From assembly GCA_031856995.1 (NCBI GenBank), contig GCA_031856995.1_4356.1: a stretch of DNA of 43,888 nucleotides; one strand, 5' to 3'. This document shows positions 1 to 43,888 of this stretch, one piece after another. Each line of letters opens with the position of its first letter. The stretch's first letter is position 1. This DNA is from a phage. The notes beneath the pieces are model-generated. The model was not told the origin of the DNA, made no database searches, and saw only the letters and a list, made by a program, of their open reading frames with translations. The position numbers were made by a program, and so were the translations under genes.

Positions 1-729
1 GACCATATTTGGGCCGCTACCGCACGCGGATACGAATGGGCGCGTATTCAGGAAGCCAAGCGACCACCACGTCCTGGTGAAAAAGATGACCGACCCTCAT
101 ATATCCTTGATAAGAAAGTTTGGCGCACCTGTGACGCTTTAAAGCGCATGTACCGGGAAGCTAATCCTGCAATAGTCCAATTCTGGCGCGATATTGAAGA
201 CGCAGCTATGGCAGCAATCCGTAATCCGGGGAAAGAGTTCACCGCTGGCCCTCGCGGGGTTAAGTTTTCTCGCAACGTAGAAACAGACAACAACGGCAAC
301 AAAGTCGCTGGTTGGTGGTTGCGCATGACGTTGCCGTCAGGTCGCGTTATGTCATACCCGGGCGTCGGGTTGAGCGTGTCAAAAGAGACAGACGAAGACG
401 GAAAAGTTTCTACTAACGTGCGCATCAAGTATCAGGGTGAAAATCAGTTAACCAGGCAGTGGGGCTTCCAGTACACCTACTCCGGTAAACTGGTGGAAAA
501 CTGCACTCAGGCACTGTGCCGTGACTTGCTGGCTAATGCGCTACTTAACGTTGAAGCAAACGGCTACCCGATTGTACTTCACGTACACGATGAGATTATC
601 TGCGAGACACCGGATTCGCCTGAATACAATGTGGCGGAACTCGAACGATTGATGTGTGAATTACCAGACTGGGCTAAGGGGTTCCCTCTTGTAGCAGAAG
701 GTAGCGAAATGTACAGATACGCCAAGTAG
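1..729 (+). CDS. DNA polymerase, family A (PolA), C-terminal part; continuation of the ORF that starts at 42369 and runs off the window end
   Basis: Frame-1 ORF open from base 1 to stop at 727-729; first 26 codons identical to translation of 43812-43888; VLHVHDEIICE motif resembles PolA motif C. Confidence 0.85.
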   Translation, partial: DHIWAATARGYEWARIQEAKRPPRPGEKDDRPSYILDKKVWRTCDALKRMYREANPAIVQFWRDIEDAAMAAIRNPGKEFTAGPRGVKFSRNVETDNNGNKVAGWWLRMTLPSGRVMSYPGVGLSVSKETDEDGKVSTNVRIKYQGENQLTRQWGFQYTYSGKLVENCTQALCRDLLANALLNVEANGYPIVLHVHDEIICETPDSPEYNVAELERLMCELPDWAKGFPLVAEGSEMYRYAK

Positions 730-751: not shown

Positions 752-796
752 GAAAATGTAAATACCGATATAATGGCTATGTCGGTATTTTTTTTT
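752..796 (+). terminator. Rho-independent terminator after polymerase gene
   Basis: Hairpin ATACCGAtataatggctatgTCGGTAT followed by a run of 9 T. Confidence 0.7.
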
Positions 797-806
797 GGAG
801 TTATTA

Positions 807-1502
807 ATGAAAAAGTGTTCAAGATGCGGCGAAGATAAACCGGCGACTACAGAGTATTTTTCAAAGTCAACGCGCCTCGGGCTGCAACGCTGGTGTAAAG
901 AGTGTGTAAATGCTAACAGGAAGGAAAAGTATGACGAAAAACTTAAATTACAAGGTAAATCCAGACGAGAAAGCCCTTGGTATGTTTTCACTGGGAAGCC
1001 TGTTAAATGCAGAAAGTGTGGGGAGGTAAAACCTTTAACAGAGGAAAACTTCAGGAAAGGAAATAAAAGTAATGGCTCTCATATCAGGAAAGATTGCCGG
1101 GAGTGTCTCAACAAGCAACGCAGGGAACTGGTGAATAAGGACCAAAGGACGCGGGCGTACGCGCTTTTGTTAGGATACAAAAGAGCAGATTCAGGAAAAG
1201 GGCTTATCTGCGATTTAACACTGGAAAGCGTTATTAAACTAATATCACAGCCATGCCATTATTGCGGAAGCACTACAAAAGTCGGGGTAGACCGCATAGA
1301 TAATACAAGCGGGCACATAGTATCTAACTGCGTTTCTTGTTGTCAGACATGTAATCTTACCAGAGGACACCGGTTTACATTCATTGAAATGGTTACGGAG
1401 ATAGGTCCCGCCATTAAAAGAATAAAAGCGGCGAGAGAAGTTTCACATATACCGTCTTTTCCTAATAGGTGGCCTGAAGGAGAATGTAGAGATGCCAAGT
1501 AA
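807..1502 (+). CDS. HNH homing endonuclease
   Basis: ORF track 795..1502 (TTG); ATG at 807 follows GGAG; Cys-rich N-terminus with CxxC pairs; C-terminal VDRIDNTSGHIVSNCVSCCQTCN HNH-like motif; AT-rich relative to neighbours. Confidence 0.75.
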   Translation: MKKCSRCGEDKPATTEYFSKSTRLGLQRWCKECVNANRKEKYDEKLKLQGKSRRESPWYVFTGKPVKCRKCGEVKPLTEENFRKGNKSNGSHIRKDCRECLNKQRRELVNKDQRTRAYALLLGYKRADSGKGLICDLTLESVIKLISQPCHYCGSTTKVGVDRIDNTSGHIVSNCVSCCQTCNLTRGHRFTFIEMVTEIGPAIKRIKAAREVSHIPSFPNRWPEGECRDAK

Positions 1503-1709: not shown

Positions 1710-1858
1710 CAATGTTTGTATTTTGGACAATAGTAACCCTGCTCGCGCTGTTACTAGGTGCGGGAATAGCTGCGATGTTCTGTTACGGCCTGTTCTTTAA
1801 GTTTGTTGGCGTTGCCGTTCTCGGAGGAGCGTTTATAACCTGGGTTCTGCGCTCATGA
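1706..1858 (+). CDS. small hydrophobic protein (50 aa, two predicted TM helices)
   Basis: MTMFVFWTIVTLLALLLGAGIAAMF...; stop overlaps ATG at 1855. Confidence 0.4.
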   Translation: MTMFVFWTIVTLLALLLGAGIAAMFCYGLFFKFVGVAVLGGAFITWVLRS

Positions 1859-2139
1859 CCCCGGAAGGCAAGATTCAGAAATACGCAAAAGAGCAATTCG
1901 AGGCCATTGGCGGCCTCGTTCGTAAACTTTCCTACGAGGGGCGTTCCGGCGCTCCCGACCTGCTGGTAATTCTCCCTGGCGGCATCGTCTGGTTCGTCGA
2001 GGTGAAGAAAGACGAAAGCACGAAGCCTGACCCGCACCAGTTACGTGAGCATGAGCGGATGCGTAAACGCGGTGCAAATGTTTTTGTCGTTGGTTCGTTT
2101 AAACAGGTTGACGACCTAATAGCAAACTATTATAGTTAG
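1855..2139 (+). CDS. VRR-NUC domain nuclease (PD-(D/E)xK fold)
   Basis: 94 aa; APDLLVILPGG...VWFVEVKKDES matches the D...E-x-K arrangement of VRR-NUC domains. Confidence 0.7.
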   Translation: MTPEGKIQKYAKEQFEAIGGLVRKLSYEGRSGAPDLLVILPGGIVWFVEVKKDESTKPDPHQLREHERMRKRGANVFVVGSFKQVDDLIANYYS

Positions 2140-2169: not shown

Positions 2170-2361
2170 ATGAAACACGAATACGACCGCAAACCAGCAC
2201 GTGACATCGTACCGGGCGACATGATTTTCAACGTTAAGACCCGTCGGCCTGTTGCCGTGGATACGGTGTTCGTCGAGTCGAACGGTAAACTGGTTATCGA
2301 AGACGTAACTGGCAACGTTACCGCGTTCGGGCGTAAAGAGCTTGTTCTGGTGGCAAAATGA
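2170..2361 (+). CDS. hypothetical protein
   Basis: 63 aa ORF with AAGGAA-type RBS; coupled (ATGA) to downstream helicase. Confidence 0.5.
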   Translation: MKHEYDRKPARDIVPGDMIFNVKTRRPVAVDTVFVESNGKLVIEDVTGNVTAFGRKELVLVAK

Positions 2362-3782
2362 GTAAGTTTCAAAGGCGCGAATATCAGAAGCTCATGACTT
2401 CGTTCATGCTGCAACACCCGCGCTGTAATATCTGGTGTGGCATGGGAGGGGGTAAAACCTCCTCTACTATGTGGGTGTTAAACCGCTTGTTCCGCAACGG
2501 GCAGCTTACAGAAGAGGACCGCGTGTTAATCCTCGCCCCGTTGCGTGTTGCGTCGGGTACGTGGCCTGCAGAACAAGAGAAATGGAACTTCCCTTGTCTG
2601 CGTGTCGTCGATGCGACCGGTTCGGAGAAGCGCCGCATCGCGGCGCTGGAGTCAGACGCTAACGTGGTGTGCACTAACTACGAAGTTATCGAGTGGCTAA
2701 TTGACTACTACGGCAAAGACGACTGGCCTTTTACGGTTATCGTTGCCGATGAAAGCACGAAGCTTAAATCGTTCCGCAGCCGTTCGGGTGGTAGCAAGCG
2801 GGCAAAGGCGCTCAGCAAGGTTGCGTTCGGAAAGGTTAAGCGTTTCATCAACCTTACTGGTACACCGTCGCCAAACGGCCTCAAGGACTTGTGGGGCCAG
2901 AACTGGTTTATCGACGCTGGCGAGCGCCTGGGGTCATCGTACACGGCATTCACCGACCGCTGGTTTAACTCGGTACAGAAGGGTAAATCGGCGATGGCAC
3001 GCGAGTACCACGCGCGACCAGGTGCCGATAATGAGATTCATCAGAAGATGAAAGACATCAGCCTTACCATCGACCCCGCAGAGTGGTTTGGATGTGAAGC
3101 GCCGATTATTGTACCGGTTGAAATAGACCTACCGAAGAAGGCGCGTCAGGCGTACATCGATATGGAGGAGAAATTATTCGCAGAACTGGAGAGCGGGGAA
3201 GTTGAAGCGGCTAACGCTGCGGCGAAGACCTCAAAGTGCTTGCAGATTGCATCTGGTGCCGTGTATGTGTCAGGGCCGGATGGCGAAGCGACCAAAGACT
3301 GGGAGAAAGTGCACGACACGAAACTGGATGCGCTCGAGTCGATTGTTGAGGAGTTGCAGGGTGCGCCGTTGCTGGTAGCCTATCAGTTTAAACACGAACT
3401 GGAGCGTATCCTTAAGCGATTCCCACAGGCACAGGCGTTCGCCAAAGGCGCTAGGGGGAACAAGCAGATGGAAGCGTGGAACCGTGGGGAAATCGAGATT
3501 TTATGCGTGCATCCTGCGTCAGCCGGGCATGGTTTGAATTTACAGGACGGGGGTCATCATCTGGCGTTCATCTCGCAAGGCTGGAACCTTGAGCACTATT
3601 TGCAGGTTGTTGAGCGCATAGGCCCAGTCCGCCAGAAACAGGCGGGTCACGAGCGCCCGGTGTTCCTTTATCACATCGTTGCTAAAGACACTCTGGACGG
3701 GGTTGTCGCCGCGCGTACCGACGAGAAGAAATCGGTACAGGAAGAGTTGCTTAATTACATGAAGAGACGAGGTAAGAAATGA
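2358..3782 (+). CDS. SF2 (SNF2/DEAD-like) helicase
   Basis: Walker A GMGGGKTS, DExx box VIVADEST, C-terminal helicase motifs (HPASAGHGLNLQ). Confidence 0.8.
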   Translation: MSKFQRREYQKLMTSFMLQHPRCNIWCGMGGGKTSSTMWVLNRLFRNGQLTEEDRVLILAPLRVASGTWPAEQEKWNFPCLRVVDATGSEKRRIAALESDANVVCTNYEVIEWLIDYYGKDDWPFTVIVADESTKLKSFRSRSGGSKRAKALSKVAFGKVKRFINLTGTPSPNGLKDLWGQNWFIDAGERLGSSYTAFTDRWFNSVQKGKSAMAREYHARPGADNEIHQKMKDISLTIDPAEWFGCEAPIIVPVEIDLPKKARQAYIDMEEKLFAELESGEVEAANAAAKTSKCLQIASGAVYVSGPDGEATKDWEKVHDTKLDALESIVEELQGAPLLVAYQFKHELERILKRFPQAQAFAKGARGNKQMEAWNRGEIEILCVHPASAGHGLNLQDGGHHLAFISQGWNLEHYLQVVERIGPVRQKQAGHERPVFLYHIVAKDTLDGVVAARTDEKKSVQEELLNYMKRRGKK

Positions 3783-4294
3783 TGGATTTCGAAGAGTTTC
3801 TACTTAAAGCTCATCTGCTGGCGCGTGGGTTTGACGCTGACCGTCTCCAGGTAGTCTTAGCCCCTGGAGTAGCTACGTTTTACCTGTGGGGGTTTGACGG
3901 TAGGCTTCGCGGATACCAGCATTACAAACCACATGCCGAAAAGAACTGTAAAAACCCTAAAGACGCGCGGTACTTTACCAGAACAACAAGGCCGTGTTTA
4001 TGGGGGCTTGAGTATTTGCCGGAAAGCGGGGTGGTATTTGTTACCGAAAGCATATTCAAAGCCGTAGCCTTGATGAATTGCGGGTTCAATGCTGTAAGCG
4101 CACTGGGGTCAAATATATCAACAGACCTACGGCAGCAAATGTCACTTTTGCCGTATGACTGGGTGTGCGCTGGCGACAATGATAAAGCTGGATTAAAGTT
4201 CAGCAAAACATTCACCAGAGGATTTGTATCTAACGACCTTGATGAACTTTGTGAAGAAGAAATAACGTATCTTGCGAGGAAATTTACCAGATGA
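3779..4294 (+). CDS. Toprim-domain protein (DnaG-like primase core)
   Basis: VFVTESIFKAVAL...AVSALG...VCAGDNDKAG: conserved E and DxD Toprim signatures. Confidence 0.7.
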   Translation: MMDFEEFLLKAHLLARGFDADRLQVVLAPGVATFYLWGFDGRLRGYQHYKPHAEKNCKNPKDARYFTRTTRPCLWGLEYLPESGVVFVTESIFKAVALMNCGFNAVSALGSNISTDLRQQMSLLPYDWVCAGDNDKAGLKFSKTFTRGFVSNDLDELCEEEITYLARKFTR

Positions 4295-35858: not shown

Positions 35859-35987
35859 ATGACGAAGTTAATAGTTCCACAGCTGCGCCGACAGAAACAC
35901 GGCGCCGATTTCTTCGCGCCGGTAAAGATGAACCGCGCAATGCGCCGTATGCAGGAAGCCTTAGAACGTGCGGAGAAAAAGAAATGA
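35859..35987 (+). CDS. small basic protein (42 aa)
   Basis: MTKLIVPQLRRQKHGADFFAPVKMNRAMRRMQEALERAEKKK; stop overlaps ATG 35984. Confidence 0.35.
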   Translation: MTKLIVPQLRRQKHGADFFAPVKMNRAMRRMQEALERAEKKK

Positions 35988-38206
35988 ATATTGTTTTTGC
36001 AACGCTGCGTAACACATTCGATAAAAACCCTGTAGCGCGTGAAATGCCGCTGGAGCAGTTTGTCGAGTATGTCTGCGATACATCGAAGCGTTTATCCGTG
36101 GACCCGTCATGGACTAAGGAAGAGTACGACGCTGCCAAGATTAAACAGAAAGCTATTGCGCCTGTTGGTGGTCGCCGTAAAAACGCTATCCTGGAAGACA
36201 GTGTGGTTAAGTTCGATTTCGACCATCTCAACCGTACTCAGTACCGCGACCTGACACGCAAATTCAAGAACGCGCCGTTCTTCAATATTCTGCACACAAC
36301 GGCATCGCATCAGCACGCATGTAAAAACGGAGATTACGCTTTCCGCGTTCTGGTTCCAGCTCGCACGCCGTTTAACTCTAACGACGCGTGGATGGTGCAA
36401 CGTGCTATTTGTGCAGAGTTAGAAATAGACGAAGCGTTGCGCGACCACTGCACAGAAGACGGCAACCGCCTTATCTACCTGCCGCATAAAGAGTCGAAGA
36501 TAACGGTTACAGAAGGGCGTGTTATCCGTGCTGAGCGGTACATCAAGAAAGCCGAAGAGATGGGGTTGCGTAAGCGTGAGGCTAAAACACTTGCCGCTGA
36601 TGAGCATGGGCTTAACGCGGATATAGCACACTTCTGCGAAGCCGAGCTTGGCCTTGACGCTTTATCTTCCGGGCGCGGGTACGAAGTGCCATGCCCTAAC
36701 GAACATCTGCATACAGGCAAGGGCTCCACCAGCATAATGCTCGACGGTAAAGAAGTGCGCTTTGTCTGCCAGCATACAAACAACGGCGCTTGCACCGAGC
36801 TTAACCGTAGGCAGCATTTGGCCCTGCGTATGTGTGGCCTACCCGACGAGCTTAACATAGATAAGCAACCTATCAGCATTAACAGCATTCGTGCGGCTCT
36901 GCCTGATTTACCGGAAGAAGAGATTGAAGAACTACACCGCACAGAGAACGAGGACCCAGTAACTTGCAGCCTCGACGACCTGGAAGACGACGAGGACTCA
37001 GAGGAGGACGAGTTACCGGAGCCGGTAAAGGCTGATTTCGTCGTTGAGGGGTACATGCCGTCGGATTGTATCTGGGATATCGTCGGGGAATCTGGCACGT
37101 ACAAATCGTTCTATACGCTGGGGATGATGTACCTCAGCGCCGCCGGGTACAGGTTTGCGGGGGCGGATACCCAGCGTTGCCACCATTTCTATATTGATGG
37201 TGAGGGTGGCGCAGCTACACGCACCCGTATTGATGCACTAGCGGCTAAATATGGCGGGGAAGGTAAAGATTATGTACACGTCATCGATATGGGCGAAGTC
37301 GGCAAACTTAAAAGCCTGATTAAGTTAATGCGCGAAACTGCTGGCGACGAGCCAATTGGCATGGTTGCGTTCGACACCCTTAACCAGACCCTGGCACTGA
37401 CGATTGATAAGTTCGACGAGAACAGTTCATCAACAGCAATCGGCATGGGTAAAGTTATCGCCATTCTGAAAGAAGTACGCGATGCAACTAAAGCCGCAGT
37501 AGGCGTTGTCCACCATACGCCGAAGGGTGGAAAGAAAGCACGCGGCAGTGGGGCGCTGTATGCGGGTGTTGACGTGGAACTGACAATCGAACGTGCAACC
37601 GACCGTCAGATAAACGTATATCACTCGAAATTCAAGCACGGGCCTCAGCAGAAGACGGTTGGCATGGTGCTGGAGTCGGTACAGTTCCGTGAAGCGCCGC
37701 CGCCTAAAGAATACCGAGCGGTTGAGTTCCTGGGTAGCACAGAGGAATACGGCACAATCGTAAACCTGGACCTGCCTGAACCACACAAGGCGCTTGTGTT
37801 GATGCCGTGGGGTTTCGAGCCGTTCAAAACTGACGAGGAGAAAGAGCGGGAAGAAGGGTTGACGAAAGAAGGTAAGCAAAAAGTAAAGGAAGAAGTTAAA
37901 CGCGGCAGGGATGAAGTAAGGAAGGAGTCAATACTTTCGGCACTGGAAGACCTGCAACAGTCAGATGACACAGGTCGCGGTTTTACTCAGCAGCAGATAG
38001 TGGCTCGTTCCGGTGACTTCTCTGTGACTAACACCCATCTTGATAAAATGTTGAAAGATGGAGAACTAATGCTTGGTTGCGATGCTAACGGCGAAGTAGT
38101 ACCGAGAACATATCGTATACCCGAAAGAATAGGTGATAGATTAAGGCCGAAGACACTATACGAACCAAATGAGATGCTGGTGGTGACAGAGGAGGATTTG
38201 GAATAG
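35984..38206 (+). CDS. replication initiation primase/helicase-like protein (N-terminal Zn-binding primase-like region plus RecA-like ATPase)
   Basis: 740 aa; Walker A-like VGESGTYKSF, Walker B-like IGMVAFDTL, Cys/His cluster CPNEHLHTGKG...CQHTNNGAC, acidic linker. Confidence 0.6.
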   Translation: MNIVFATLRNTFDKNPVAREMPLEQFVEYVCDTSKRLSVDPSWTKEEYDAAKIKQKAIAPVGGRRKNAILEDSVVKFDFDHLNRTQYRDLTRKFKNAPFFNILHTTASHQHACKNGDYAFRVLVPARTPFNSNDAWMVQRAICAELEIDEALRDHCTEDGNRLIYLPHKESKITVTEGRVIRAERYIKKAEEMGLRKREAKTLAADEHGLNADIAHFCEAELGLDALSSGRGYEVPCPNEHLHTGKGSTSIMLDGKEVRFVCQHTNNGACTELNRRQHLALRMCGLPDELNIDKQPISINSIRAALPDLPEEEIEELHRTENEDPVTCSLDDLEDDEDSEEDELPEPVKADFVVEGYMPSDCIWDIVGESGTYKSFYTLGMMYLSAAGYRFAGADTQRCHHFYIDGEGGAATRTRIDALAAKYGGEGKDYVHVIDMGEVGKLKSLIKLMRETAGDEPIGMVAFDTLNQTLALTIDKFDENSSSTAIGMGKVIAILKEVRDATKAAVGVVHHTPKGGKKARGSGALYAGVDVELTIERATDRQINVYHSKFKHGPQQKTVGMVLESVQFREAPPPKEYRAVEFLGSTEEYGTIVNLDLPEPHKALVLMPWGFEPFKTDEEKEREEGLTKEGKQKVKEEVKRGRDEVRKESILSALEDLQQSDDTGRGFTQQQIVARSGDFSVTNTHLDKMLKDGELMLGCDANGEVVPRTYRIPERIGDRLRPKTLYEPNEMLVVTEEDLE

Positions 38207-38211
38207 GTAAA

Positions 38212-38235
38212 AAGAAAGGGGCGTTACGCCCCTTC
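38212..38235. terminator. Bidirectional terminator hairpin
   Basis: GGGGCGttaCGCCCC with A-rich 5' flank (T-run on - strand). Confidence 0.55.
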
Positions 38236-38439
38236 ACCTAGCGCCAGCCACTTGGCGTCTACTTCCAGCACTTCCGCCAGTTTAAACAGCGTTGCCGGGC
38301 GTACGTCCTGAGTTACCCCGAGTGCAAGCTGGTTAATCGCGCCCTGGGAAACGCCGGCCAGAACAGCCAGACGGCGCTGGGAGATACCGAGTTCTTTACG
38401 GCGTTGCTCTACACGGATGCCTAGTTCAGATGGTTGCAT
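38224..38439 (-). CDS. XRE-family (Cro/CI-like) HTH transcriptional regulator
   Basis: 71 aa; ISQRRLAVLAGVSQGAINQLALG classic HTH; AAGGAG RBS; divergent from + strand genes. Confidence 0.75.
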   Translation of the reverse strand: MQPSELGIRVEQRRKELGISQRRLAVLAGVSQGAINQLALGVTQDVRPATLFKLAEVLEVDAKWLALGEGA

Positions 38440-38454
38440 GTCAGTTACTCCTTA

Positions 38455-38490
38455 GTCAGTTGATATGTGAATAGTACCATATTAATTATT
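38455..38490 (-). promoter_or_regulatory. Promoter/operator element for the leftward HTH gene
   Basis: Palindromic core GAATAGTACCATATT; on - strand TACTATTCAC box matching -10 regions of the TTGCAC promoters. Confidence 0.45.
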
Positions 38491-38503
38491 TTAGAAAAGC
38501 CCA

Positions 38504-38532
38504 TTGACATGTGAATAGTTCGCTATTATAGT
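38504..38532 (+). promoter_or_regulatory. sigma70-like rightward promoter with palindromic core
   Basis: TTGACA-17 nt-TATAGT; core GAATAGTTCGCTATT. Confidence 0.6.
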
Positions 38533-38560
38533 TAGCCCATACCAAACGAGAGGGGCAGAT

Positions 38561-38788
38561 ATGAACACAATCACTGGGGCCATAGCTAAAGGTTTTCGAG
38601 CAATTTTCGGCGCTCCGCAAGAAGTGTGCACAAAACATAAATTTGTACTTTCTTGCGTAGTAGGGGATGAGTTTGATGGGTTCGATAAACTTGTTGTCTG
38701 TGACCATTGCGGGCAAGAAGCTATTCAACACTCAAACGGTAAATTTGAACTAATAGACGATAGCCTTACTGAAGGCGACGGTGAGTAA
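38561..38788 (+). CDS. hypothetical protein with CxxC
   Basis: 75 aa; GAGAGGGG RBS; CDHCGQE motif. Confidence 0.5.
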   Translation: MNTITGAIAKGFRAIFGAPQEVCTKHKFVLSCVVGDEFDGFDKLVVCDHCGQEAIQHSNGKFELIDDSLTEGDGE

Positions 38789-38812
38789 CTTACACAAACA
38801 GGAGAGAAACAA

Positions 38813-39313
38813 ATGTTAGAGAAATTCTTAGTATTGCTGGAACGTTTCGTAGTTGCACATGAACTGATTGCCGCGAACAGTGCGAAACAAGTTGTTCAGG
38901 TTGCCACGCCGCTGGAAGTAGAGACGGTATCGTACACCAAAGAAGCGGTAGCTGAGTGCGCTGAAGAAGCAACAAAAGAAATCCCGGTTGAAGGTGAAGA
39001 CGTAGTTGACACTAAACCGGCGGAGGAAGAGAAGCCAAAACGCAAGCCGCGTAAAGCTAAAGTAGAGGAACCTGCGCCAGAACCGGAAGAAGAGAAAGAA
39101 GAAGTCGATTACAAGTCTCTGCGTGACCAGATTCAGGCCATCGACGATGCAATTAATGAAGGTCCTAGCGATGCCGCGTGCGACGATTCTGATGAACTGC
39201 TGGAAGAGTTCACTGGTAAGAAAATGAAGATTGCAGCGATTAAAGACGAAGACCTGGCTGAATACCTGGAACGCTTGACAGCAATCAAGAACAAGTATTT
39301 CGAAGAAGAATAA
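38813..39313 (+). CDS. hypothetical acidic protein
   Basis: 166 aa, Glu/Lys-rich; followed by terminator. Confidence 0.5.
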   Translation: MLEKFLVLLERFVVAHELIAANSAKQVVQVATPLEVETVSYTKEAVAECAEEATKEIPVEGEDVVDTKPAEEEKPKRKPRKAKVEEPAPEPEEEKEEVDYKSLRDQIQAIDDAINEGPSDAACDDSDELLEEFTGKKMKIAAIKDEDLAEYLERLTAIKNKYFEEE

Positions 39314-39320
39314 TTATCTG

Positions 39321-39340
39321 GCGGCCTTCGGGCCGCTTTA
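39321..39340 (+). terminator. Rho-independent terminator
   Basis: GCGGCCttcgGGCCGC followed by TTTA. Confidence 0.6.
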
Positions 39341-39356
39341 ACTGAGGGTCGTAATA

Positions 39357-39572
39357 ATGAGTAACGTATACAAAGTAATAAACGAACAAATAGTTGTAGA
39401 AATAAGTGACTCATATGTGGGTTGTCAGCAATTCTTTGTTTTGAATGGTGCGTGGCGCGGGACTCTTGACTATGCCGCTGGCGAATATTGGGCGGACATG
39501 TACCCAACCGATAAAACGGCGGTACATACAATTCGTCCCGCCGTTAAAGGTGAATTTGCGCCGTACTACTGA
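39357..39572 (+). CDS. hypothetical protein
   Basis: 71 aa ORF preceded by conserved ACTGAGGGTCG initiation motif. Confidence 0.5.
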   Translation: MSNVYKVINEQIVVEISDSYVGCQQFFVLNGAWRGTLDYAAGEYWADMYPTDKTAVHTIRPAVKGEFAPYY

Positions 39573-39583
39573 GGGTCGGAATT

Positions 39584-39787
39584 ATGGCTATTTTAGCTAA
39601 GAAAAGTGGTCTTATGATTTCTGGCAGCGTTGTCGCTGAAAATGATTTGGTTTACGTATTTCAGGCGGTAGACAACAAACACCCTACGACGGTCAAGAAG
39701 GCCAGCAAAGTTGAGAAGGTTTTCGACGGCGATTTTTCTATTGACGATGTTTTCACGTGGATTAATTCTGCGAGGGTAAGGAAATGA
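39584..39787 (+). CDS. hypothetical protein
   Basis: 67 aa ORF preceded by ACTGAGGGTCG motif. Confidence 0.5.
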   Translation: MAILAKKSGLMISGSVVAENDLVYVFQAVDNKHPTTVKKASKVEKVFDGDFSIDDVFTWINSARVRK

Positions 39788-40056
39788 TTTACCAACTCTA
39801 CCGCGCCGTCGACAGGCGGGACAACACAGAGGCACTATGGCTGTTGCGTGCGCCGTCCGGAGCGCACCAGATGGAAGAGATGGCTTACTTAGGCAAAGTA
39901 CCGCGGCCTAAAGATATAGGCCGTCACGTGTCACAGATTAAGCGCACGACATTCGCCAAGCCAGACTTTTATGTCTTTGAGTCGATGTATGGGTGGGCTA
40001 TGCACTGCGAACATAAGACGCGACATTTAATCGACCAGTGGGAGAGCAGGGTATGA
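39784..40056 (+). CDS. hypothetical protein
   Basis: 90 aa ORF, ATGA coupled. Confidence 0.5.
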   Translation: MIYQLYRAVDRRDNTEALWLLRAPSGAHQMEEMAYLGKVPRPKDIGRHVSQIKRTTFAKPDFYVFESMYGWAMHCEHKTRHLIDQWESRV

Positions 40057-40202
40057 CAAGGTACGCGATAATTGTAGAAATAGACGGTAAAGACCAGGAA
40101 CACAGCCGCTACGCACGTTTGGACGAAGCCCAGTACATCTTCTACACATTCGGCTTCGCACGCAGTTTCACTAATGCGCGTATTGTGGAGATTGCAGAAT
40201 GA
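40053..40202 (+). CDS. small hypothetical protein (49 aa)
   Basis: ATGA coupling at both ends; MTRYAIIVEIDGKDQEHSRY... Confidence 0.35.
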   Translation: MTRYAIIVEIDGKDQEHSRYARLDEAQYIFYTFGFARSFTNARIVEIAE

Positions 40203-40357
40203 CGAACCGTAAAGCGCGACTTCTCTTTATTAAATGTCACCAGCCTTTTCGAGTAAGCAACTCGACTTGGCTGATTATATTCAACCGTAGCGGTGACACG
40301 TGCGCCTACAAGCGCAAAACGCGTAAAGTTAAATGGGGTGGGAGTTTAAGAGCATGA
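40199..40357 (+). CDS. small basic protein (52 aa)
   Basis: ATGA coupling at both ends; MTNRKARLLFIKCHQPF... Confidence 0.35.
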   Translation: MTNRKARLLFIKCHQPFRVSNSTWLIIFNRSGDTCAYKRKTRKVKWGGSLRA

Positions 40358-41595
40358 AACTAAAAGAACGAGGCGGCAATAATGATGTACACGCCTTACT
40401 GTCACCGTCAGGCGCTAAAAAGTGGCTGTCATGCGCTGCGTCGCTGGCGTGTGAAAAAGATATCCCTAACACGTCGGGTAAAGCCGCTGTATCAGGAACC
40501 GCCATGCACACCATAGCTGAGGTCCATCTCAACGCCTATATACGCGGCACTGCGTTGCCGTTGGAGCGTGAAGTCGGCGCTTACGTGCTGGACGAGGGTA
40601 AAGGCCAGATTAAGGCGCTAATTAGCCAGATGAAAGGCGCGGTACTGATTACGGCTGACATGATTGAGCAGGTGCGCAAGTACACCGACTACTGCAAAGC
40701 GATTATCGACGTAGCGACTTACGCCAAGCTGGAAATGCGGGTAAATCTTACTGAGGTATTGCATCCGGGTTACGAAGGCGTTGAGACGTTCGGAACCGCT
40801 GACCTTGTTGCCGTTCAGGAACTGGCGAACACTGACGAGCATATGCTCATTATCGGCGACCTGAAAACAGGACGGCATCATGTCGAAGCGAAAGAAAACA
40901 AGCAGCTTATGCTCTACGCTCTCGGTGTTTACCGCCGACTCAAGAGACGTTATAACATATCAGTAGTGCGCCTGGTCATCTTCCAGCCGTACGCCGGGGG
41001 CGCGTCGGAGTGGGACATCTCGGTTGAAGGTCTGGAACTGTTCGCTAAGTTCGCACAGAAACGCGCACTGTTAGCCCTTGATGCGTATTTCCGAGGCAAG
41101 AAGAACCTGAAAGCGTCGGACTTTAAGCCGTCTGTCGACGGTTGTCAGTGGTGTCGGTTCTCTGAACAGTGCGCAGCGCGTACAAAGACGGTTAATTCTG
41201 TACTTGCCGAAGAACTGGAGGACGACTTTGCGCTGGAACTTACGCCGGAGCAACTCGTAGCTGAATATGAGAAGTTGCCGTTGTTGCGCCAGCACATCGA
41301 TAAGGTCGAAAAAGCTATGGCTGCTGCGTTGCATTCCGGTAAGAAAGTGCCAGGGTACAAGCTGGTGGAAGGTCGCCCAGGTAATCGTGCGTGGAAAGAC
41401 GCAGAGAAAGTAGCAGAACTCTACGGCGACAAGCTGACTAAAGAAGTGCTCCTGACGCCGACCGAAGCGGTTAAAGTAATACCAGAAGAAGAACTGAAAG
41501 ACTTCATCACACGTAAGCCGGGGGCGCCATGCGTCACAACAGCGGACGACAAACGTCCTGAGTGGAATAAGGTTAGTGAAGAAGATTTAGAATAA
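40354..41595 (+). CDS. PD-(D/E)xK exonuclease, Cas4/RecB-like with probable Fe-S cysteines
   Basis: GTADLV, IGDLKTG (D..K), QLMLYALG, and cysteines LSCAASLAC near N-terminus plus CQWCRFSEQC near C-terminus; ATG 40354 after GGGAG (track ORF starts 40333). Confidence 0.7.
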   Translation: MKLKERGGNNDVHALLSPSGAKKWLSCAASLACEKDIPNTSGKAAVSGTAMHTIAEVHLNAYIRGTALPLEREVGAYVLDEGKGQIKALISQMKGAVLITADMIEQVRKYTDYCKAIIDVATYAKLEMRVNLTEVLHPGYEGVETFGTADLVAVQELANTDEHMLIIGDLKTGRHHVEAKENKQLMLYALGVYRRLKRRYNISVVRLVIFQPYAGGASEWDISVEGLELFAKFAQKRALLALDAYFRGKKNLKASDFKPSVDGCQWCRFSEQCAARTKTVNSVLAEELEDDFALELTPEQLVAEYEKLPLLRQHIDKVEKAMAAALHSGKKVPGYKLVEGRPGNRAWKDAEKVAELYGDKLTKEVLLTPTEAVKVIPEEELKDFITRKPGAPCVTTADDKRPEWNKVSEEDLE

Positions 41596-41599
41596 AGTG

Positions 41600-41628
41600 T
41601 TGACATCTGAATAGTTAGCTATTATAGT
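41600..41628 (+). promoter_or_regulatory. sigma70-like promoter with palindromic core
   Basis: TTGACA-17 nt-TATAGT; core GAATAGTTAGCTATT. Confidence 0.6.
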
Positions 41629-41682
41629 TCTAATCACTGGCCGGGCAGCTTCCCGGAGTAATCTTAAAAGCGAGAAATCAAG

Positions 41683-42309
41683 ATGGGCATTAAACTGAAT
41701 CTGCGTAAAGTAAACACTGCATGGGTTAACGTATTCGAACGCGAAAAAGACCGTGAAAACGACGACGGCTCAATCACTAAAGGCCAGTACAGCGCAACTA
41801 TCATCCTGCCGACTGACCATGCTCAAATCGATGCGCTGTACGACACTGTTTACGCTGTAGTTGAAGAAGCATTAGGTGCAGCTGCTGCCGAGAAGTGGAT
41901 GAAGTCAAACTACGGCGAAGGCAAGCATATGGATAAATGCGCTATTAAAGACATTGCTGAGCGCGACAATCCGTTTGAAGACTTCCCGGAAGGCTTCTAC
42001 TTCAAAGCGAAAGCACAGAAACAGCCGCTGATTGTAACCTCTAAAAAAGGTGAGACTCAGGTGGAGCAGGACTTCAACGTAGACGGTGAACAGATTGAAG
42101 GTGAACAGGTTTACAGCGGCTGCGTCGCTAACGTAAGCGTCGAAATCTGGTTCAGCCAGAAATATAAAGTACTCGGCGTTAACCTGCTGGCGATTAAATA
42201 CGTCGGAGAAGGTAAAGCGTTTGGAGGCTCTAAAGTTGCTGCAAGCGTCGACGACCTGGAAGACGACGAAGAAGATGAAGCACCGCGCCGCGAACGTCGC
42301 CGCCGTTAA
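41683..42309 (+). CDS. putative ssDNA-binding protein (acidic C-terminal tail)
   Basis: 208 aa between exonuclease and polymerase; C-terminus VDDLEDDEEDEAP...; own promoter and terminator. Confidence 0.5.
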   Translation: MGIKLNLRKVNTAWVNVFEREKDRENDDGSITKGQYSATIILPTDHAQIDALYDTVYAVVEEALGAAAAEKWMKSNYGEGKHMDKCAIKDIAERDNPFEDFPEGFYFKAKAQKQPLIVTSKKGETQVEQDFNVDGEQIEGEQVYSGCVANVSVEIWFSQKYKVLGVNLLAIKYVGEGKAFGGSKVAASVDDLEDDEEDEAPRRERRRR

Positions 42310-42329
42310 TATCTGAATCAATTTAACTA

Positions 42330-42351
42330 AGGCCCTTCATTGGGCCTTTTT
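42330..42351 (+). terminator. Rho-independent terminator
   Basis: GGCCCttcattGGGCC followed by TTTTT. Confidence 0.7.
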
Positions 42352-42368
42352 ACTAAGGGTCGAAAATA

Positions 42369-43888
42369 ATGAGTTACCTGTTCTTAGACTTTGAAACATT
42401 CTCCGAAGCCGATTTGAAGAAAGTCGGTTCCTACGCTTACGCCGAACATCCAACTACCGAAGTGCTAATCTGTACATATGCTTTTAACGACCAGCCTGTA
42501 CAGGTATGGGATTGCACCGACGGCAGCGATATGCCGGGCGATTTGTATCGCGCGTTACGCCGCCTGGTTAAGCCGAACAGCCGCGTTAAGATGGTGTGGC
42601 ACAACGGCTCAATGTTCGATAGGCTCGTCATGAAACACTGCTGGGGTTTTGACATTCCGGTAAGCAACACCATTGATACGATGATTTGGGCGTTTCGTCA
42701 CGCGCTGCCGGGTTCGCTCGATGCGCTGTGCGAAGTGCTGGGCGTGTCCGCCAACAACGCGAAAGACAAACGCGGCAAGGCGCTGATTCAGCGTTTCTCT
42801 AAACCGACGCCGAAGAACTACAAAATCCGCCGCTACACCGCTGAAACACATCCCGATGAGTGGGCGCTGTTCATCAAGTATGCCGTTAGCGACATTACTG
42901 CGATGCGTGAAGTCTTCCATAAGCTGCCGCGGTGGGGTAACTCGGAGTTCGAAGACCGTGTACTGGAACTTGACCAGTTAATCAACGACCGCGGATTTAA
43001 GGTTGACGTCGCACTGGCGGAAGCCGCGATTGAAGCCGTAGAGAAGCACAAGGCACAGTTACAGGAAGAAGCTCAACGTAAATACGGCGGCTCGCTTACC
43101 GGTAAAGACTTCCTTCCGATTCTGCGTGAACTTGCGCCCGCGCACCACATACACAATGCACAGAAGTCGACGCTTAACGACCTGTTGGCAGATGATGATT
43201 TACCGGACGACGCCCGGATGATTATCGAAATGCGCCTCGGGGCCGCGTCAACAGCGTCCACGAAATATAACCCGCTGCTGTTAGGCCGCTCGTCGGACGA
43301 CCGACGCCGCGGTTGTATCCAGTACGGTGGGGCAAAGCGTACTCTGCGATGGGCCGGTAAAGGCTTCCAGCCGCAGAACCTGGCACGCGGTTACTATCAC
43401 GATGATGAGCTGGATAAAGGCATTTCGGCGTTACTTAAGGGTCGCGCCCATCGCCGTTTCGATGTGGCCAAGCTAACGGCATCGACCGTTCGTAGCTGCA
43501 TCATACCGGAAGCAGGGCATAAGTTTGTCGTTGCCGATTACTCTAACGTCGAGGGCCGCGGTCTTGCGTGGCTGGCGGGTGAAGACGATTTAATCGAAGT
43601 ATTTGTAAACGGGGTTGATGTGTATAAGAAACTCGCATCAACGGTGTTCAATGTTGCATATGAAGCCGTAACAAAGGACCAAAGACAAATAGCCAAAGCA
43701 ATGGTTCTGGGACTCGGCTACGCGGGGGGCGTCGGTGCTTTCGTCACGTTTGCTAAAAACTTAGGTCTTGATTTGAATGACATGACTAACACTTTAGACG
43801 GTACATTCCCGGACCATATTTGGGCCGCTACCGCACGCGGATACGAATGGGCGCGTATTCAGGAAGCCAAGCGACCACCACGTCCTGG
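42369..43888 (+). CDS. DNA polymerase, family A, N-terminal part with 3'-5' exonuclease motif (ORF runs off window end and continues at 1..729)
   Basis: ATG 42369 after TAAGGGTCG; MSYLFLDFETFS contains Exo I-type D-x-E; no stop before 43888; in frame with ORF at base 1. Confidence 0.85.
   Translation, partial: MSYLFLDFETFSEADLKKVGSYAYAEHPTTEVLICTYAFNDQPVQVWDCTDGSDMPGDLYRALRRLVKPNSRVKMVWHNGSMFDRLVMKHCWGFDIPVSNTIDTMIWAFRHALPGSLDALCEVLGVSANNAKDKRGKALIQRFSKPTPKNYKIRRYTAETHPDEWALFIKYAVSDITAMREVFHKLPRWGNSEFEDRVLELDQLINDRGFKVDVALAEAAIEAVEKHKAQLQEEAQRKYGGSLTGKDFLPILRELAPAHHIHNAQKSTLNDLLADDDLPDDARMIIEMRLGAASTASTKYNPLLLGRSSDDRRRGCIQYGGAKRTLRWAGKGFQPQNLARGYYHDDELDKGISALLKGRAHRRFDVAKLTASTVRSCIIPEAGHKFVVADYSNVEGRGLAWLAGEDDLIEVFVNGVDVYKKLASTVFNVAYEAVTKDQRQIAKAMVLGLGYAGGVGAFVTFAKNLGLDLNDMTNTLDGTFPDHIWAATARGYEWARIQEAKRPPRP
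43812..43888. repeat. 77-bp terminal direct duplication of bases 1..77 (assembly overlap / circular permutation)
   Basis: Exact identity between 1-77 and 43812-43888 by direct comparison. Confidence 0.95.

Follow-up and report, generated by a model that had tools for sequence, protein, structure and literature searches.

A probable duf2800-gp2.5-polA replication and recombination module in the genome of a Kagunavirus phage

We analysed the 43,888-nucleotide (nt) phage contig GCA_031856995.1_4356.1 (hereafter, the window), near the end of which three genes follow one another on the plus strand. They are predicted to encode a nuclease of the DUF2800 family with the RecB/Cas4-type PD-(D/E)XK fold (413 amino acids (aa), 40354..41595), a protein of the T7 gp2.5/Enc34 type that binds and anneals single-stranded DNA (ssDNA), here called the SSB (208 aa, 41683..42309), and a family A DNA polymerase, PolA, whose first 506 codons run from 42369 to the last base of the window, 43888. 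An initial annotation had reported these genes and the signals around them; all of its open reading frames (ORFs) and signals were found again at the same positions, and its three domain assignments hold under profile, structure and motif tests. Over 3556 bases, the nuclease-SSB-polA region is 99.8% identical to that of Escherichia phage vB_EcoS_XY1 (Guernseyvirinae; Kagunavirus, a common genus of E. coli phages), and 438 phage records match it, mostly from Salmonella Jerseyvirus and Escherichia Kagunavirus.

The nuclease matches Pfam DUF2800 (PF10926; E = 6.4e-69, 233.3 bits against a cut-off of 21) and PDDEXK_1 (5.9e-9, 36.7 bits against a cut-off of 22), as well as PHROG 69, named 'exonuclease', and 11,841 relatives were retrieved when all 1.84 billion cluster representatives were scanned. 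No NCBIfam model matched either this protein or the SSB. The start at 40354 is supported by the close homologues, all of which are 412-415 aa long. Conservation was assessed in an alignment of 146 diverse homologues from among these relatives, each with at most 59% identity, in which residues E127, G147, D150, D169, K171, Q184 and Y188 are 100% conserved. These residues form the motifs of the RecB family, that is, the acidic motif I (E127), the GxxD motif II (G147/D150), the DxK motif III (D169/K171) and the QxxxY motif (Q184/Y188). The same alignment singles out four cysteines arranged as C27...C264-x2-C267-x5-C273, of which C27 and C267 are invariant and C264 and C273 are present in 145 of the 146 sequences; the remaining three cysteines are not conserved. 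A one-plus-three pattern of this type (C...CX2CX5C) ligates the [4Fe-4S] 'iron staple' of AddB, Cas4, Dna2 and EXO5. A phmmer search of the single sequence against the PDB gave no match, and a profile of 91 homologues was needed; with this profile, the cysteines of the phage protein align with those of the AdnA nuclease domain. The protein is a DUF2800 enzyme of the RecB/Cas4 fold with a probable iron-sulfur (Fe-S) cluster, both the cluster binding and the polarity of the nuclease being predictions. The initial annotation had described a PD-(D/E)xK nuclease with cysteines placed as in Cas4 and AddB, and the catalytic and cysteine positions concerned proved to be invariant or nearly so in the homologues; neither an unrelated fold in the profile searches nor a loss of the D/E/K or cysteine ligands in the alignment was seen.

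The SSB falls into the Pfam family PF10991 'Enc34 ssDNA-binding protein' (formerly DUF2815; E = 9e-16, 58.5 bits against a cut-off of 26) and into PHROG 112 'Gp2.5-like ssDNA binding protein and ssDNA annealing protein' (3.3e-42), and a profile of its homologues matches all three solved DUF2815 structures (4jg2, 4klk and 5odj, the latter from Enc34). When its AlphaFold model was compared with known structures by Foldseek, the best nine matches were to the Enc34 SSB, 4klk, 4jg2 and T7 gp2.5, with E from 4.5e-8 to 1.6e-4, followed by a gap of about 500-fold or more in E; bacterial SSBs appear only at E > 0.07. The core of the model has a predicted local distance difference test (pLDDT) score of 75-90, and a strand (residues 36-43) followed by two helices (49-64 and 66-77) is modelled at a pLDDT of 83-90. 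The hallmark of T7-type SSBs is an oligonucleotide/oligosaccharide-binding (OB) fold with a long helix right after strand beta-2 (PMC5686142), and this succession of strand and long helix is present in the model, whose overall confidence is moderate. The proposed link with gp2.5 draws on this predicted structure and on the literature, in which ORF6 of Enc34 was shown biochemically to be an SSB and behaves as a classical SSB in vitro (PMC5686142), while a member of the family from the staphylococcal phage phi12 promotes ssDNA annealing and oligonucleotide recombination in vivo and adjoins the genes of a RecE-like exonuclease and a Pol I (PMC2896510).

In common with Enc34 ORF6 (5ODJ/5ODK/5ODL) and T7 gp2.5 (1JE5), the SSB has PF10991, a predicted OB barrel with the long helix and an acidic block in the tail, at identities of about 17% to the former and 13-14% to the latter. 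The tail reads DDLEDDEEDEA and then PRRERRRR (residues 190-208; window 42250-42306), where the acidic block D190-E199 is predicted to be disordered and the terminal eight residues are conserved in the clade. Homologues with about 50% identity carry an acidic/basic repeat unit once or twice more, and some of them end in ...NYEDDEE. The tip differs from that of gp2.5, whose acidic/aromatic C-terminus contacts its polymerase. The 208-aa protein is a gp2.5/Enc34-type SSB, predicted by analogy with its relatives to bind and anneal ssDNA. The label 'SSB-like' of the initial annotation is thus borne out by PF10991, PHROG 112, the PDB profile and Foldseek, and it is right but incomplete, because the family also provides the annealing partner of the adjoining nuclease, a literature-supported role that had been missed; the epithet 'acidic-tailed' is correct for the acidic block and fails for the end of the tail, which closes with the conserved PRRERRRR.

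The third gene is cut by the ends of the window. Positions 1-77 are an exact repeat of 43812-43888, a 77-bp terminal duplication of the kind typical of a circular assembly overlap. Given this overlap, the assembly in the window closes into a circle and holds the phage genome in full (about 43,811 bp), and the polA ORF that reaches its end resumes across the junction at 78..729 on the plus strand, giving a protein of 723 aa in total that is collinear with the uninterrupted polA of XY1. PolA matches Pfam DNA_pol_A (2.5e-19, 69.9 bits against a cut-off of 34.3) and DNA_pol_A_exo1 (4.5e-5, 23.8 bits against a cut-off of 23.6), and its PDB matches include Taq, Bst and Klenow. The first part of the protein comprises the 3'-5' exonuclease domain, with Exo I (D7/E9), Exo II (N79...F83-D84) and Exo III (Y171...D175), the thumb, and the palm motifs A (D390YSNVE) and B (R439-x3-K443-x7-Y451); motif C (HDE, 677-679) lies past the junction. 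A 5'-3' exonuclease domain is absent, Exo I being located already at residue 7, and the NCBIfam equivalogs of Pol I score far below their cut-offs. With Exo I to III intact, the 'exo-proficient PolA' that had been proposed is supported at the level of motifs. A terminator-like hairpin, with a 13-bp stem followed by TTTTTTT, was found by the scan downstream of the gene (760..790, plus strand). The length of polA varies among the relatives. In the Jerseyvirus SE2, it is split into two coding sequences of 794 and 200 aa (contig L040, 2613-5712), and longer versions than the 723 aa found here are present in FSL SP-101 (L003, 1032 aa) and in contigs L041 (3249-5690, at least 979 aa) and L042 (3344-5750, at least 1049 aa); these longer or split genes suggest that polA of these relatives has acquired inteins or other inserts.

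We consider it very probable that the region represents, in a Kagunavirus (Guernseyvirinae) phage, the conserved duf2800-gp2.5-polA replication/recombination module. The literature has a name for this arrangement, the 'duf2800-gp2.5-polA module', in which a separate ssb gene is typically missing nearby (Steczkiewicz et al. 2021, PMC8093625). The modules of Kagunavirus and Jerseyvirus (vB_EcoS_XY1, SE2) agree with this one in their three families, in gene order and in strand, with no separate ssb, and no other SSB is present in the annotation of XY1, from which the phage shows no difference of substance save for an extra HNH/endonuclease VII-like ORF just after polA. The order DUF2800-DUF2815-PolA recurs in three more distant contigs (L041-L043), in some of which a small insert separates the first gene from the second.

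Several points weigh against this reading. The model of the SSB is only moderate, with a mean pLDDT of 65.5 and one folded model out of five, and hhalign found no significant similarity between the SSB alignment and the sequence of T7 gp2.5 (probability 1.7%). Since the tail ends in arginines and has no acidic/aromatic tip, partner recruitment may work differently from that of gp2.5. The hairpin region of the SSB terminator described below is, on its own, not unusually stable (z = -1.6). According to a 2026 preprint (bioRxiv 10.64898/2026.07.14.737667), type IX retron immunity is triggered by a DUF2800 nuclease of phage Bas14, and escapers in which it is truncated are viable, which suggests that the nuclease is accessory and lies outside the core replisome. 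Finally, for this phage the Fe-S binding, the nuclease polarity, the annealing activity and the transcript ends are predictions.

One alternative is that the nuclease and the 208-aa protein are only a two-component recombinase similar to lambda Red, with the host SSB serving the fork, so that the module would be one of recombination and not of replication. The viability of the Bas14 truncations would fit with this, as would the words 'ssDNA annealing protein' in the name of PHROG 112, the oligonucleotide recombination given by the phi12 homologue in vivo (PMC2896510) and the classification of the gp2.5-type family among the single-strand annealing proteins (SSAPs) (PMC8093625). The arrangement also resembles lambda Red (Exo and Beta) and RecET in that a PD-(D/E)XK exonuclease gene adjoins the gene of a single-strand annealing protein, and the phage nuclease counts RecE and lambda exonuclease among its neighbours in structure. 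Unlike in those systems, the annealing partner is of the OB-fold gp2.5 type and not Rad52-like, it is linked to a polymerase, and it probably doubles as the replicative SSB. T7 gp2.5 does both jobs, serving as SSB and as annealing protein. The in vitro behaviour of Enc34 ORF6 as a classical SSB (PMC5686142) speaks against a purely recombinational role, as does the gp2.5-type gene being almost always found beside polA in phages without another ssb (PMC8093625), and a dedicated strong promoter and terminator suit a protein that coats DNA stoichiometrically. We therefore regard a recombinase alone as unlikely and retain the replication/recombination module.

It could also be asked whether the nuclease is a true Cas4 homologue, acting against CRISPR adaptation or other host defences, or subverting them, and unrelated to its neighbours. 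With 91 homologues as input, AlphaFold modelled the nuclease confidently (pLDDT 93.2), and the best structural matches of the model are AdnA, Dna2, the Cas4 family, AddAB, RecE and lambda exonuclease; the closest folds are those of the end-resection nucleases AdnA and Dna2, and not that of Cas4. The model includes a confidently predicted C-terminal domain (residues ~290-413; window 41220-41595) that has nearly invariant residues of its own (G329, G334, K336, G340, R345, W347, D399 and R401) and to which none of the listed PDB matches could clearly be attributed. Cas4 proper is a single domain of about 200 aa accompanied by cas1/cas2 or a CRISPR array, while the phage protein has twice that length and its gene lies among small ORFs, the SSB gene and polA; neither in the window nor in the annotation of XY1 was a cas gene or a CRISPR array noted. 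The protein is thus Cas4-like in fold and not Cas4 proper: compared with the Fe-S nucleases AdnA, AddB, Dna2, Cas4 and EXO5, it stands alone, without a helicase motor or cas neighbours and with the extra domain. Together with the fixed synteny of its gene with those of the SSB and PolA, these features make a true Cas4 highly improbable.

The replication/recombination module also shows an arrangement of transcription signals that is centred on the SSB gene. Upstream of this gene lies a sigma-70-type promoter, P2 (41600..41628, plus strand), with the sequence TTGACA-17-TATAGT, which fits the consensus at 11 of 12 positions, and downstream of it lies an intrinsic terminator (42329..42351, plus strand) composed of AAGGCCC-TTCATT-GGGCCTT and a T-run. 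The terminator hairpin (42329-42348) folds as predicted, with a 7-bp GC-rich stem and a 6-nt loop before the T-run. The initial annotation had proposed this promoter and this terminator, the latter from 42330, and both are conserved across the subfamily, with the -35 element and the TAT..T of the -10 element kept in the Guernseyvirinae relatives. The reading of these signals as chance matches to the consensus, with the three genes co-transcribed at equal levels, draws on the counts of promoter-like and terminator-like sites across the region, which are no higher than in shuffled sequence, on the low stability score of the terminator and on the failure of the consensus scan to call it, which is due to the T-count rule of the scan, yet it is scarcely credible in view of the exactly two TTGACA-N16-18-TATNNT sites in 43.9 kb (0.16 expected), both preceding operon or gene starts, of the retention of P2 and the terminator in relatives with coding DNA of only about 70% identity, and of the hairpin and U-run that five relatives have at the same site, their stems being of four different sequences.

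The second of these sites is the promoter P1 (38504..38532, plus strand), for which the scan (11 of 12 positions), the ORF chain and the annotation of XY1 agree and which heads an operon of small ORFs that leads into the nuclease gene; a helix-turn-helix (HTH) repressor-like gene (38224..38439, minus strand) diverges from it. P1 and P2 are the two strongest promoters of the genome and, with the spacer counted, agree at 27 of 29 bases, a likeness that could reflect a shared operator or a recent duplication. Their counterparts in SE2 have only about half of the spacer in common. A repressor operator shared by P1 and P2 was considered and, the likeness not being seen in SE2, was kept as an observation only; the sequence TGTGAATAGT at 38466 was also noted alongside the resemblance. 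The junction that bears P2 is variable in distant relatives, where an HNH_3/AP2 endonuclease gene or a 67-aa ORF lies between the nuclease gene and the SSB promoter region (L043 1925-2413, L042 2218-2421), and these inserts mark the junction as an insertion hot spot.

The initial annotation had considered the three genes to be 'each separately punctuated', which applies only to the SSB gene, predicted from these signals to be a transcription unit of its own. The small ORFs downstream of P1 are linked by 4-nt ATGA overlaps at 39784, 40053, 40199 and 40354, the last of which (40354-40357) joins the stop of the upstream ORF to the ATG of the nuclease gene. This chain suggests that the nuclease is translationally coupled to the upstream ORFs, and the consensus scan found no terminator downstream of its gene. 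For polA, which starts 17 nt past the SSB terminator, the same scan detected no promoter of its own, so its expression must rely on read-through of that terminator, which is probably leaky given that polA is downstream of it. Read-through is a plausible way to obtain much SSB and little polymerase. The text of a Kagunavirus transcriptome paper (PMC12645636) gives no per-gene values for the SSB.

If the module works as we propose, the host RNA polymerase would transcribe a long operon from P1 through the nuclease gene, and P2 would add transcripts that have a small conserved hairpin at their start and for the most part stop at the terminator, yielding a stable and abundant monocistronic SSB mRNA, with read-through giving a lower level of polA expression. 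The SSB would coat lagging-strand and resected ssDNA, and its charged tail would recruit the polymerase and the helicase-primase. The nuclease would resect DNA ends in the 5'-3' direction and the SSB would anneal the resulting 3' tails, and resection and annealing would in turn support recombination-dependent replication, the formation of concatemers and the repair of breaks.

The hairpin in the leader of the SSB mRNA, CCGGG-CAGCTT-CCCGG, predicted by folding, has a 5-bp stem and a 6-nt loop (41641..41656, plus strand) and would occupy about +6 to +21 of the transcript if it starts some 7 nt past the -10 element. Its sequence is invariant in six close relatives, and in the distant contigs L042 and L043 it is 100% paired with two of the five pairs changed on both sides; the exact pattern occurs in 31 IMG/VR contigs. 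No Rfam family matches within 38400-43888, the hairpin included. An invariant A-rich stretch, AAAAGCGAGAAA, lies between the hairpin and the ATG of the SSB gene. The hairpin may either stabilise the mRNA or act as a translational operator, in the latter case by nucleating the binding of excess SSB and thereby repressing SSB translation; T4 gene 32 is the analogue for an SSB that represses its own translation. The acidic-then-arginine tail, in turn, could be a clade-specific switch for this binding or for the recruitment of the polymerase. We put forward, as a rather doubtful proposal, that the SSB gene is a self-contained and possibly autoregulated cassette formed by the strong promoter, the leader hairpin, the A-rich stretch and a leaky terminator that meters polA.

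Several other genes related to replication are found on the plus strand. Directly after the polA terminator is the HNH/endonuclease VII-like ORF (807..1502), with two N-terminal CxxC...CxxC repeats and a match to PHROG 1035 (4.5e-30), for which no Pfam family scored above its cut-off. It is absent at that site from the otherwise 99.8%-identical XY1 and was found in only four phage records (Bas72, Bas73, Bas74 and KMB35); it is a sporadic mobile insert and not a core gene of the module, probably a free-standing homing endonuclease. It is followed by a VRR-NUC-type, resolvase-like endonuclease (1855..2139; PHROG 93, 1.5e-33; PHROG 5702, 1e-19; Pfam VRR_NUC, 0.0031, below the cut-off), an SNF2-type helicase (2358..3782; Pfam SNF2-rel_dom, 7.8e-13; PHROG 62, 8e-166) and a small Toprim primase-like protein (3779..4294; PHROG 849, 2.7e-48; Pfam Toprim_2, 9.6e-5), and a replicative helicase-primase-like protein with an AAA_25 ATPase core is encoded at 35984..38206 (PHROG 3228, E = 0; Pfam AAA_25, 3.7e-17). 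The VRR-NUC endonuclease, the SNF2 helicase, the Toprim primase and the helicase-primase are the usual companions of the module, as in Enc34. The set had been called 'unusually nuclease-rich'; apart from the HNH insert, it is the standard replication-recombination set of Guernseyvirinae and Enc34-like phages.

The annotation of the region is correct and ordinary, and the finding matters little beyond it, since the module is widespread and has already been described. Its value for annotation is that the SSB should be labelled as gp2.5/Enc34-type and annealing protein and the nuclease as a DUF2800 enzyme of the RecB/Cas4 fold with a probable Fe-S cluster, and that polA should be read across the assembly junction. 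As DUF2800 nucleases have lately been reported to trigger the type IX retron defence, their presence in Kagunavirus phages that are candidates for therapy is relevant to host range. The conserved and covarying leader hairpin is a new detail of an otherwise known module and, together with the mixed-charge tail of the SSB, offers a small lead on how these phages may set the ratio of SSB to polymerase.

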